Positions 12,909 to 23,733 of a stretch of 30,986 bases of DNA are shown in pieces. Under the pieces are notes generated by a model that saw only the letters and a list, made by a program, of their open reading frames with translations, had not been told where the DNA came from and searched no databases. The stretch is taken from positions 1-30,986 of the IMG/VR virus record IMGVR_UViG_3300025084_000127; one strand, given 5' to 3'. Within the stretch, counting starts at the first letter, position 1, and each line of letters opens with the position of its first letter. The translations under genes and the position numbers were made by a program. The DNA is from a virus. Lineage: Duplodnaviria > Caudoviricetes.

Positions 12909-13096
12909 AATCATTAATTATTCACTTGGTAGCCTTCTGGAATGTTGCGGTAGTAAATTGCGTCCAACCAGTCAACTGGCAGTATTGTTATCGAGTGGAT
13001 CAGTGGTTGATACCTGAAATGATACAAGGATATAAGCTTTGGTCTGGACAAACTCATCCATACCAAAATGAAAAGGAATATCTTATTACTAAATAA
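12905..13096 (+). CDS. Small hypothetical protein with hydrophobic N-terminus
   Basis: 63-aa ORF, ATGA overlap with hsp20. Confidence 0.65.
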   Translation: MKSLIIHLVAFWNVAVVNCVQPVNWQYCYRVDQWLIPEMIQGYKLWSGQTHPYQNEKEYLITK

Positions 13097-19429: not shown

Positions 19430-20473
19430 ATGGCAGAAAATATTAGTGCTGACGTTAACGAACTGCACTGTGCCTGGTATCTTAATGGCAAGTCTTGGAC
19501 TGGTGGACTAGATTCTACCGACAAGGCAGTTTATGATGATCGCGTAGAAAAATTATCTAAAAAACCTGATGAACTGAAGGCTCGTATTGCTCAAGCAGAA
19601 GTCATGGCAGACAAGTTTGTGGAGTGGGCTGGTAAACATGGATATACTGGTGTAGATGAGGTATATTGGACTGCCAAATCGTCTTTTAACTATAGAAGTT
19701 TACCTGGTAAGTATAGTTCTTCTTATGTGTCGGAGAGTAAGAACAACCCTACTGATGTACTTGTCAAATTTAAATCTTCTACCAGGTATGCTGATCCATA
19801 TCTAGGATTATCTGCTAAATCTTTGCTCAAAACACTGACTCAAGAGGCACCTGTTAAGAACCCAGGCATGGGCAAGATTGAAGAGTTTATCAAACAACCT
19901 GGAGTCTTTCAGAAACTGTTAGAACAAGGAGTTGCAGCTGCACATAAAGAGTCTAGTGTGCCTTATGCTGGTAAGTATTTGAATAAAGATGAAATTAAAA
20001 GACTACTTAAACCAACAAAGCAAAATAAGAAGGGTGATCCTGATTGGTTGATAGTCAATCAAAAATATACTAAACAAATTCTTGGTGGATGTAGAGACAT
20101 TTTGAAGGATGCATTCACCAAGATGGGTGACATTGATATCAAAATGTATATTTTGGATGAGTTGCTTGACACAGATAAGTTACCCAAGTATGTCAAGGTG
20201 ACTGGTAGATCTGATAAAACTATAACAAACGTTCAGGCAACAGTTGATGACCCACTAGGCAATGCAAAGTTTGATGCACTGGTTAAAAAGAATAAACCAC
20301 TTAAGTATGAGAACCTAGGTGGTGATGATGGTTATACTATTGGTGTTAAGGCAGGTGAAAAACAAATTGTCCAGATCAGATTTAAGTTCTCTGGTACACA
20401 ACTAGCAACAGGACTAAAGATGAGTGTTGCTCCTTGGCCTGGTTCTATAGAGAAAGGGATTGAGTCAGACTGA
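19430..20473 (+). CDS. Hypothetical protein, putative PD-(D/E)xK-like endonuclease
   Basis: 347-aa Lys-rich ORF with DVNE...NPTDVLV...GLSAK motif spacing. Function is inferred. Confidence 0.55.
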   Translation: MAENISADVNELHCAWYLNGKSWTGGLDSTDKAVYDDRVEKLSKKPDELKARIAQAEVMADKFVEWAGKHGYTGVDEVYWTAKSSFNYRSLPGKYSSSYVSESKNNPTDVLVKFKSSTRYADPYLGLSAKSLLKTLTQEAPVKNPGMGKIEEFIKQPGVFQKLLEQGVAAAHKESSVPYAGKYLNKDEIKRLLKPTKQNKKGDPDWLIVNQKYTKQILGGCRDILKDAFTKMGDIDIKMYILDELLDTDKLPKYVKVTGRSDKTITNVQATVDDPLGNAKFDALVKKNKPLKYENLGGDDGYTIGVKAGEKQIVQIRFKFSGTQLATGLKMSVAPWPGSIEKGIESD

Positions 20474-21666: not shown

Positions 21667-22220
21667 ATTGTAAGACCTGCTACTTTACGTTTGGCAGATT
21701 CCAACCACCTACTACTGGACACAAAGATAACTTTGATGGAGTGAAACGTGCAGCAGGACGACATGATTATCGCATTTATATTTCTCAATCCCACGACACT
21801 AAAGGAAAGAATCCCCTCTCACCTGATCGTAAACTATTCTACATGGAGAAGATGTTCCCAGAGCATAAGGGTAAGATCTTTTCGGGTCCTAAACAACCCG
21901 TGGAGATCCTACAGGAGCTTATGATGCATGGGTATAATGAGGCAGTGTTCCTTGTAGGTTCTGATAGAGTGAACGCCATGTCATTCCTCCATAAATATAA
22001 CGGAACAGAATTTTCTTTCCGCAAGATTGAAATTAAATCTTCAGGTAGCAGAGATGCTGATGGAGATACCTTTGCTATTTCTGGAACGAAGATGAGACGT
22101 GCAGCATTTAAAGCCGACTTCAAAACATTCAGGGCTGGTATACCCAGAGCACTGAATGATAAAGATTGTATGGCAATGATGATGGAGATAAAAGCAAATC
22201 TACCTGCAAATTTTAAATGA
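21657..22220 (+). CDS. Cytidylyltransferase-like (HIGH-superfamily) nucleotidyltransferase
   Basis: FGRFQPPTTGH, VGSDR, ISGTKMR. Confidence 0.88.
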   Translation: MALNCKTCYFTFGRFQPPTTGHKDNFDGVKRAAGRHDYRIYISQSHDTKGKNPLSPDRKLFYMEKMFPEHKGKIFSGPKQPVEILQELMMHGYNEAVFLVGSDRVNAMSFLHKYNGTEFSFRKIEIKSSGSRDADGDTFAISGTKMRRAAFKADFKTFRAGIPRALNDKDCMAMMMEIKANLPANFK

Positions 22221-22492
22221 AAGATTTCAAAAAATTGAGAGAGCAGGCAGTTCGCCAACAACATAGACAAACTGATACCTTTGCTGAAGGTGATGTTGTT
22301 ATGAATGCATTGACTGGGCAGAAGGGTGTTATACATCGGTCTGGAGTCAACTATGTTATTGCAATTACAGAGTCTGGTGAGATGTTTAGAGCGTGGGTAA
22401 AAGACATCCGCGCTGTACAAGTAATTGATACCATAAATAAAGACAGGAAAAGTAGTATTTTCAATAATGGAAAGACAGAAACCAGTCAATAG
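22217..22492 (+). CDS. Hypothetical protein (SH3-like beta-rich)
   Basis: ATGA overlap with the previous gene. FAEGDVV...GQKGVIHRSGVNYVI...AWVKDI. Confidence 0.75.
   Translation: MKDFKKLREQAVRQQHRQTDTFAEGDVVMNALTGQKGVIHRSGVNYVIAITESGEMFRAWVKDIRAVQVIDTINKDRKSSIFNNGKTETSQ
22432..22439 (+). promoter_or_regulatory. Late (gp55) promoter
   Basis: CATAAATA, 27 nt upstream of the 22467 ATG. Confidence 0.6.
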
Positions 22493-23345
22493 TGTGCAGC
22501 ATAATGATGCCTATTCCCAGGCACTTATCAATTCTTATTCCAAGTGGATGGGTGGAGAAGGATTCCAACAGTCTACTATCAGTGAAGAGGCTGCTACCAT
22601 CCCCGCACCAGAGAAGAAAGAACTAGGAGCTCCTGGTCCTGCTGGTGGTGCTGATGCATCTACTTCTATCCCTGACCTTTCTGGTAAGGAAAAGAAAGAG
22701 GATGACTTCTCCACTAAAGACCCTAAAGCAAACGCTGCTCCCCCTGATCCTGCTGCTAACCTACGTACAGGTCAAGGCATGAAGTATTCTGTTGGTGCAG
22801 AAATTAGAGATACTACAAAGGTTGTTGCTCGTGAAGAGACTGAAGACCTAGAAGAGAAGAATGGTCTCTATGCTAACATCCATGCTAAAAAGAAGCGTGG
22901 TGAAGCACCTGCAAAGAAAGGTAGTAAGGACTATCCTGCTGCTGATGCCTTCACTAAATCTGCAAAGACTGCCAAGAAAGAGTCACTCTCTTTTGAACTA
23001 GGTGGTGAGACATACATCTTTGAAGTTAAGATGGATGGTAAAGATGACAACGGCAATACCTCTTGCTGGAAAGGATATAAGAAGCAAGGCACCAAGAAGA
23101 AAGGTGGTAAGGAAGTTAACAACTGTGTCAAGGCAGGGTTTGAACCCACTGGCGAAGAGATCAAAGAGAAGAAACTTGATCCCGTAGGCAAGGAAGACAA
23201 GGACATCGACAATGATGGTGACCATGATAAGTCTGACAAGTATCTTCTAGCACGTCGCAAGAAGGTCTCCAAGATCATCAACACCAGCAAGAAGATGAAG
23301 GAGCAAGCAGAACTTCGTAAGGAGATCGAAGAAGAAAAAAAGTAA
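22467..23345 (+). CDS. Charged, modular probable head-internal/core protein (short form)
   Basis: 292-aa Lys/Glu-rich ORF after a late promoter, with a DxDxDG motif. Ends at A_AAA_AAG_TAA. Confidence 0.85.
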   Translation: MERQKPVNSVQHNDAYSQALINSYSKWMGGEGFQQSTISEEAATIPAPEKKELGAPGPAGGADASTSIPDLSGKEKKEDDFSTKDPKANAAPPDPAANLRTGQGMKYSVGAEIRDTTKVVAREETEDLEEKNGLYANIHAKKKRGEAPAKKGSKDYPAADAFTKSAKTAKKESLSFELGGETYIFEVKMDGKDDNGNTSCWKGYKKQGTKKKGGKEVNNCVKAGFEPTGEEIKEKKLDPVGKEDKDIDNDGDHDKSDKYLLARRKKVSKIINTSKKMKEQAELRKEIEEEKK

Positions 23346-23374
23346 ATGAGGCTTGCGGATGTGACGACAAGCCT
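23319..23374 (+). other. Programmed -1 ribosomal frameshift signal
   Basis: SD-like AAGGAG 23319-23324, slippery A AAA AAG 23336-23342, 6-nt spacer, stem AGGCTTG/CAAGCCT 23349-23374. Confidence 0.75.
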
Positions 23375-23503
23375 GCAAAGAAAGGCGCAACCGTTGAAAT
23401 AATGCCTGACATTAAAGACGGTGCTGCTGAAGATAAAGAGAATAACAAGAAGAATAAAAAGTATATTCTCAAGGCAATGAAGAGTCAGAAAAAGGCGGAC
23501 TAA
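23342..23503 (+). CDS. 53-aa -1 frame extension of the 22467 protein
   Basis: VNEACGCDDKPAKKGATVEIMPDIKDGAAEDKENNKKNKKYILKAMKSQKKAD*. No start codon near its 5' end; fills the intergenic gap. Confidence 0.7.
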   Translation, partial: VNEACGCDDKPAKKGATVEIMPDIKDGAAEDKENNKKNKKYILKAMKSQKKAD

Positions 23504-23526
23504 ATACAGGGGCATACTATGCCCCT
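23500..23526 (+). promoter_or_regulatory. Late promoter (CTAAATA) followed by a 5' hairpin
   Basis: CTAAATA 23500-23506, then AGGGGCA-tacta-TGCCCCT. Confidence 0.55.
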
Positions 23527-23532
23527 AAAATC

Positions 23533-23733
23533 ATGCTAGCATTTCTACTTCCACTCGCATCAAAAATTATCAAAGATGCAGTTGCAAATATTCCAGAGAA
23601 TGAGGAACTTGGTGAGAAGATGGTTGAGATCTGTCTTGTTATTCTTGCTAAAGCAGTTAAGTTGACCAAGACTGATATGGATGATCAACTTCTTGAAGTT
23701 GTTTCAGCAGCAATTAAGAATAGAGAAGAGTGA
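23533..23733 (+). CDS. Conserved small cyanophage hypothetical protein
   Basis: MLAFLLPLASKII...AVKLTKTDMDDQLL, between a late promoter and a terminator. Confidence 0.8.
   Translation: MLAFLLPLASKIIKDAVANIPENEELGEKMVEICLVILAKAVKLTKTDMDDQLLEVVSAAIKNREE

Follow-up and report, generated by a model that had tools for sequence, protein, structure and literature searches.

The window analysed here (30,986 nucleotides, IMG/VR record IMGVR_UViG_3300025084_000127) covers 31 kb of a T4-like cyanomyovirus and is close to phage S-CAM1. In one of its late genes, a 292-codon open reading frame (ORF1), the slippery heptamer A_AAA_AAG stands directly before the stop codon, and an open −1 frame of 53 codons (the tail) continues from it. 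The signals at this junction and their conservation among relatives indicate that it very probably carries a programmed −1 frameshift of the dnaX type in the 'reversed' layout. In a fraction of rounds, ribosomes would move back by one base on A_AAA_AAG, bypass the frame-0 stop and extend the protein by the 53 residues of the tail, giving forms of 292 and 345 residues, for which the initial annotation had suggested a fixed ratio. An initial annotation had proposed this frameshift from the letters of the window; the heptamer and the internal Shine-Dalgarno-like element (SD) proved to be conserved, and the −1 frame is conserved in relatives with a coding pattern, in agreement with the proposal.

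Elements of the junction

The SD-like AAGGAG, the heptamer, the stop, the stem and the −1 ORF all lie where the initial annotation had placed them (Table 1). The −1 frame is, as it had said, closed at 23318 (TAA 23318-23320) and free of ATG for 20 codons; it is open from GTA at 23342 to TAA at 23503, with the first ATG at 23402. The tail matches PHROG 11250 at 1.6e-32 and shows a 94% match to S-CAM1. The combination of SD, heptamer and stop occurs once in the window against a chance mean of 0.02, for a pattern chosen post hoc, and at the two other in-frame A_AAA_AAG of the window the −1 frames run for only 6 and 13 codons. The S-CAM1 genome contains seven in-frame A_AAA_AAG in ORFs of at least 60 codons, and a stop, an SD and a hairpin accompany this one only; a phage-wide use of the cassette was thus not seen in the nearest complete genome and was discarded. 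The stem of the window is found in both the minimum-free-energy and the centroid structure (predicted folding), and at the identical junction of the IMG/VR contig L009 the hairpin has a p of 0.027 versus synonymous recoding.

Homopolymers are prone to error, and one database protein, P0113, reads through the junction in frame; as the start of P0113 seems shifted too, the protein may stem from an error-prone contig, and it was disregarded as probably unreliable. That the junction reflects an assembly or homopolymer error, which the initial annotation had named as a danger, or a decayed gene without an expressed tail is nevertheless hardly credible. The 7-A run is matched exactly in contigs of four public runs: the contig of run X2 spans 23150-23634 with 0 differences and 0 gaps relative to the window, and those of X4, X6 and X9, which look like one unitig and are maybe not independent, span 23314-23575, again with 0 differences and 0 gaps. 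Identical junctions are present in the IMG/VR contigs L009-L011, and the same junction occurs in seven cultured phages (S-CAM1, S-CAM3, Syn1, S-PM2, S-RIM32, Sf-CH11 and Sf-FR1). Homopolymer error was rejected on the basis of the four runs and the cultured phages, and the coding-type conservation of the tail (see below) speaks against decay. RNA runs contain at most 0.12 of the words.

Comparison of junctions in relatives

Loci were collected from eight phage records, from an IMG/VR protein search (the best 80 of 229) and with a DNA pattern (120 of about 420) that targeted the upstream peptide, the junction not being part of the pattern. With the window included, 209 loci yielded 172 junction rows, of which 120 were distinct; the anchor was missing from 11 loci, and the remaining ones ran off their ends. 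The tail core lies in the −1 frame behind a heptamer without ATG in 47 of the distinct junctions, behind an ATGA start without heptamer in 34 (the ATG class) and behind both in two. The remainder comprises three junctions with a heptamer in which the core was not seen, two with the core in frame and 32 without the core, which are other genes with the same anchor or truncated loci. The pattern is one of either/or: the 83 junctions with the tail core in −1 divide into 47 with the heptamer only, 34 with the ATG only, 2 with both and 0 with neither. L139 and L177 combine an ATGA overlap with a heptamer placed one codon ahead of the stop, and these loci are possible intermediates between both states.

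The 51 heptamer loci form 29 clusters at 90% and 16 at 80%. Of the eight annotated records opened, seven have the heptamer junction; all seven enter the tail, in whole or in part, as a hypothetical coding sequence (CDS) of its own and mention no frameshift. The junction of the eighth record, S-CAM4, is of the ATG type. A tree of 39 rows and 110 columns (9 of 36 branches well supported) leaves the order of the slip, ATG and fused states unfixed, the ATG class needing five changes of which only one is forced. In L068 and L069, the reading frame of the anchor continues into a tail-like segment as a natural fusion (independent E-value, iE, of 0.0025 and 0.01 with the tail profile). In-frame fusion as the usual state was only partly supported, since none of the other 96 of the 98 continuous forms attains an iE of 0.1.

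Conservation of the heptamer and of the codon over the stop

The pattern of codon use indicates that the heptamer is under selection. It is present in all 47 tail-bearing junctions without ATG, and the 50 heptamer loci without ATG all read NNA AAA AAG. The first codon is GAA in 45 of them, GGA in two and TCA, GTA and GCA in one each, so that the heptamer is kept across E, G, S, V or A. At internal positions of the same ORFs, X-Lys-Lys is written with the heptamer in 2/521 cases and Glu-Lys-Lys in 0/107; the gene ends of the ATG class are mostly AAG AAA AAA or AAA AAG AAA.

The codon over the stop is GTG in 28, GTA in 21 and CTG in one of the 50 loci; therefore Val is kept and the start codon is not. 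GTA is a non-start codon. GTA and GTG are interleaved among close relatives on the tree, and well-supported branches force 3-4 changes. The frame-0 stop itself is TGA in 29, TAA in 20 and TAG in one; in L044 and L149 it comes one codon later, yet the predicted hairpin begins 6-7 nt after the heptamer.

The run of seven A in the window could in principle also be read by a slipping RNA polymerase, which would add an A to some transcripts and yield the long protein by standard translation; T. thermophilus dnaX uses such transcriptional slippage (PMC5009743, accessible text). The run is, however, 7 A in 45/50 and 6 A in 5/50 and never longer, its closing G is invariant, and the SD and the hairpin lie at ribosome-type distances, all of which makes polymerase slippage very improbable.

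The tail frame

The conservation pattern shows the tail frame to be protein-coding, without a usable start in the window. Codons around the V-E-V/I-M-P core, those before the Met included, vary at the third position and hardly at all at the second. No ATG, GTG or TTG precedes the conserved core in 12/47 loci, the window among them. A profile of the tails finds 33/34 ATG-class genes at an iE <0.01, and the tail is therefore the same module that has an ATG of its own in sister phages. In the class of the window, tail lengths are 32-95 aa, the longer tails having extra modules.

The records annotate the tail as a CDS of its own, that is, as a separate small gene with a coupled start at the stop (GTGA or GTAA overlap) or a start at the internal Met. 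This would be favoured by the GTG over the stop in 28/50, by the homologous module being an ATGA-coupled gene in 34 junctions, by an SD 11 nt before the overlap codon in 11/47 and, in the window, by a frame-0 ATG directly after the stop, which opens an 18-codon ORF (23346-23402) whose TAA overlaps the ATG at 23402. That frame-0 ATG is, however, present in only 5/47 relatives, and a relay via the 18-codon ORF was rejected for this reason. The codon over the stop is GTA or CTG in 22/50 and GTA in 24/24 junctions of a distant lineage (see below), and the SD of the window sits 17 nt from its GTA. As to the internal Met, it follows conserved residues, is replaced by Leu in L044 and lacks an SD in 47/47. 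A coupled start has no need of AAA AAG, which the ATG class does not keep. A separate start of the tail is thus improbable, and we retain the programmed frameshift as the explanation of the junction.

Stimulatory elements and tRNA

A GGAG ends 11 nt upstream of the heptamer in 34 of the 51 heptamer loci, 8 nt upstream in nine and 14 nt upstream in one; seven have none. For −1 shifting, the accessible text of PMC5009743 gives an SD spacing of 9-14 nt. The codon before the GAG shifts among AAG, GCG, CAG, AGG, GGG and ATG (K, A, Q, R, G and M) with the G kept, and an internal Lys-Glu is written AAG GAG in 36/357 cases.

On the 3' side, the mean folding energy of 36-nt windows is strongest directly behind the heptamer, at −9 kcal/mol versus −1 to −5 away from it, and the first paired base lies 4-7 nt downstream of the heptamer in 34/51. 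The hairpin reaches p <0.05 versus synonymous recoding in 27/51 loci and in 11/16 representatives; the homologous peptide window in ATG-class phages does so in 7/35. The 7-bp stem of the initial annotation is present in the predicted structures but lineage-specific: it lies in a 36-nt segment that is absent from the near-identical L012 (ORF1 98% identical), where a different hairpin starts 7 nt after the heptamer, at much the same distance. Predicted hairpins differ in sequence between lineages, and one follows the heptamer in most lineages. The stem of the window as a family-wide element was rejected because it sits in an indel.

A further scan, covering 120 of about 220 loci, yielded 24 distinct junctions that belong to a distant lineage, besides 10 longer ORFs without the heptamer, 85 ORFs running off the locus and one duplicate. 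All 24 junctions combine the A6G heptamer with GTA and hairpins of −15 to −23 kcal/mol, and the representatives of this lineage have no SD. Its tails match window-type tails weakly (3/22 at an iE <0.01); judged by sequence, its site and the window-type site are probably, not certainly, homologous. The −1 frames of this lineage (L293-L412, e.g. L298, L340 and L379) are still open at 225 codons at the locus end. SD strength and hairpin strength are inversely related (rho −0.64 for 26 representatives, not corrected for kinship). The anti-SD sequence underlies the duplex energies.

tRNAs were counted from Rfam matches over the cut-off and with ARAGORN. The complete marine Synechococcus genome behind L242 has 43 tRNA matches, with Lys(TTT) once and no tRNA-Lys(CTT) among them, and no tRNA-Lys was found in S-CAM1 (8 tRNAs); the window has none. 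As far as this Synechococcus genome represents the host, one tRNA-Lys(TTT) and no phage tRNA-Lys would fit the single-tRNA-Lys condition of E. coli. ARAGORN also called a two-piece tmRNA in S-CAM1 (L212:34061-34375), adjoining a tRNA-Arg and absent from the annotated features of the record.

Several points weigh against a programmed frameshift. The case is built on signals and conservation, and the relatives are related sequences, not independent samples. The hairpin of the window lies within the shuffle range (z −1.61; 16/200 dinucleotide shuffles fold as well), and 24/51 loci do not beat synonymous recoding, in particular the Syn1/S-PM2 lineage with its weak hairpin. In that lineage, the SD at 8 nt is just outside the 9-14 nt range and lies 11 nt from the codon over the stop, where it could also aid coupling (11/47). 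The 7/51 heptamer loci without GGAG belong here too, as does the fact that the tRNA-Lys condition is taken from one Synechococcus genome, which may not be that of the phage's host.

Comparison with known systems

By analogy with work on E. coli dnaX and IS3 elements, a single tRNA-Lys(UUU) would read both lysine codons, pairing better with AAA than with AAG. The anti-SD would pair with the AAGGAG 11 nt upstream and the hairpin 6 nt downstream would slow translocation; the tRNAs would then re-pair on AAA_AAA, and GTA (Val) would be read.

E. coli dnaX (tau/gamma) has the same A_AAA_AAG, a 5' SD within 9-14 nt, a 3' stem-loop and a single tRNA-Lys (PMC5009743, accessible text). Shifting makes the short product there, whereas it would make the long one here, in an unrelated phage late gene. 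The dnaX/IS3 architecture of the initial annotation therefore applies to the heptamer, the SD and the 3' stem; the layout is that of 'reversed' dnaX and not of E. coli dnaX. In the 'reversed' genes (e.g. a Chlorobium phaeobacteroides candidate), the frame-0 stop directly follows the shift site and shifting gives the long product; that gene, an unpublished candidate in the accessible text of PMC5009743, is a chromosomal replication gene, and homology to ORF1 is not expected. IS3-family (IS911-type) orfA/orfB likewise fuse an upstream ORF to a −1 ORF, with an SD in many IS elements and a 3' RNA structure (same text); the present locus differs in having no transposase or IS features, a simple hairpin and, for junctions of the window's class, a tail of 32-95 aa.

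In phages, the frameshifts of tail-assembly chaperones (G/GT) and of capsid extensions likewise yield a late morphogenesis protein in a short and a long version (PMC10885494, accessible text). The gene described here, in contrast, is not between tail tube and tape measure and has no chaperone or capsid match in PHROGs or Pfam. T4-like phages reportedly make tail chaperones without frameshifting, according to a title in a reference list. No literature was found on frameshifting in this gene or in cyanomyoviruses, most subscription journals being outside the search, and the accessible text of PMC10976474 and PMC12801897 has nothing on these genes. The frameshift mechanism itself is classical, and the surprise is moderate.

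Possible function of ORF1

ORF1 is 80% identical to its S-CAM1 counterpart and matches 65 phage records, 64 of which are named Synechococcus, Prochlorococcus or cyanophage. No function followed from family searches: Pfam gave only a sub-threshold DUF7201, PHROGs a family of unknown function and Atlas hypothetical viral clusters only. The Atlas model of ORF1 has a pTM of 0.19.

The protein is a mosaic of small modules, Lys/Glu-rich and, by prediction, poorly structured. Among the best 120 of 4362 homologues, four module starts follow L/I-x-E in 114/119, 81/98, 71/78 and 41/47 sequences versus a background of 3.1%. L/I-x-E is the site of the T4 gp21 protease (PMC9026906, accessible text). The ATG-bearing tail genes start with MK in 36/36; position 4 is F/Y in 35 of them and position 7 is F/L in 35; leader positions 4 and 7 are said to carry capsid targeting in T4 IPIII (same text). 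L/I-x-E at the module borders and the MK-type leader in ATG-class tails therefore suggest prohead cargo, in line with the head packaging that the initial annotation had thought probable. We give about an even chance to ORF1 being a prohead core or cargo polyprotein that would be cut by a gp21-type protease after L/I-x-E, with the shift keeping the tail module at a lower copy number than the body; the slip would replace the tail's own capsid-targeting-like leader.

ORF1 resembles the T4 prohead core and internal proteins (gp22, gp67, gp68 and IPs) in being late and charged, in the L/I-x-E at module borders and in the MK leader of ATG-class tails. It differs from them in that sequence homology is not shown and in its absence from the virion table of PMC3037559 (accessible part); gp67 and gp68 are reported missing from cyanophages (PMC2984593, accessible text). 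Two points speak against the prohead assignment. The module patterns were picked by eye, and the clusters of these genes (T4-GC 842, 843, 1080 and 1081) are not in the accessible part of virion Table S8 (S-SM1, S-PM2 and Syn9) of PMC3037559, an absence that argues against a stable constituent of the virion; the table does contain the neighbours T4-GC190 and T4-GC537. It would miss core proteins that are cut and expelled.

A broader proposal is offered only tentatively, and we regard it as rather unlikely. The frameshift would be a copy-number dial for prohead cargo, and one small module would have three interchangeable routes into the cyanophage head: attached by the −1 shift to a polyprotein that the protease cuts, encoded by a free gene whose leader resembles a capsid-targeting one, or fused in frame; slip lineages would trade SD against hairpin strength to hold the ratio, and would swap further modules onto the tail.

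Genome context

The DNA polymerase, UvsX, helicase, MazG and a cytidylyltransferase-like gene lie 5' of the site in the window. The gene of the site sits between the MazG/cytidylyltransferase block and the primase, and tail and capsid genes are elsewhere.

Table 1. Position of the junction elements and adjoining features in the window.
Feature	Position	Strand	Remarks
Internal Shine-Dalgarno-like AAGGAG, likely 5' stimulator	23319..23324	+	ends 11 nt before the heptamer
Slippery heptamer A_AAA_AAG, frame 0	23336..23342	+	from sequence; kept in relatives
Frame-0 stop TAA	23343..23345	+	directly after the shift site; closes the 292-aa ORF1
Hairpin AGGCUUG/CAAGCCU, likely 3' stimulator	23349..23374	+	arms 23349-23355/23368-23374; starts 6 nt after the heptamer; sequence lineage-specific
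−1 frame tail, 53 codons	23342..23503	+	first codon GTA (Val); PHROG 11250; would give the 345-aa long product
ORF1, 292 aa, short product	22467..23345	+	PHROG 4359; Lys/Glu-rich, modular, predicted largely unstructured
Late-promoter motif CATAAATA (NATAAATA type)	22432..22439	+	full match upstream of ORF1; motif from sequence alone
CTAAATA late-promoter-like motif	23500..23506	+	1 mismatch from NATAAATA; overlaps the stop TAA of the tail; upstream of the 66-aa gene
Upstream 91-aa gene	22217..22492	+	PHROG 4808; labelled ribonucleotide reductase subunit in records; leader MK-x-F-x-x-L-R-E as in ATG-class tail genes
66-aa gene	23533-23733		PHROG 402; 3' of the tail and the CTAAATA motif

NATAAATA is the late-promoter consensus of S-PM2 (PMC2984593, accessible text). 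The initial annotation had let the tail end on the next late promoter; its stop does lie inside CTAAATA, but this motif is one mismatch away from NATAAATA. Variants of CTAAATA at 13090, 19406 and 23501 of the window precede several genes, beside canonical NATAAATA copies. A 347-aa ORF at 19430-20473 stands behind a CTAAATA motif and has no PHROG or Pfam match; its positional counterpart in S-CAM1 is longer (407 aa).

For the 91-aa gene, the labels in records and PHROGs are ribonucleotide reductase subunit or cytidylyltransferase, and Pfam gave no match. The real reductase genes of S-CAM1 lie farther downstream, and in P-HM1 and P-HM2 the 91-aa part is the N-terminus of a longer protein with ORF1-like modules. 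The reductase-type label is probably a propagated misannotation.

Implications

If the frameshift is real, a dnaX-type recoding signal would operate outside the tail-chaperone and capsid genes in a large group of abundant marine cyanomyoviruses, with S-PM2, Syn1 and S-CAM1 as culturable model members, and the examined records would mis-annotate the tail of a protein as a separate gene. The family offers a natural series of frameshift cassettes, with an SD and a moderate hairpin, a close SD and a weak hairpin, or no SD and a strong hairpin, which allows a direct test of stimulator compensation with the ribosomes of cyanobacteria. As relatives differ in having the slip, a start of their own or a fusion, these phages are a tractable case for the gain or loss of a programmed frameshift.
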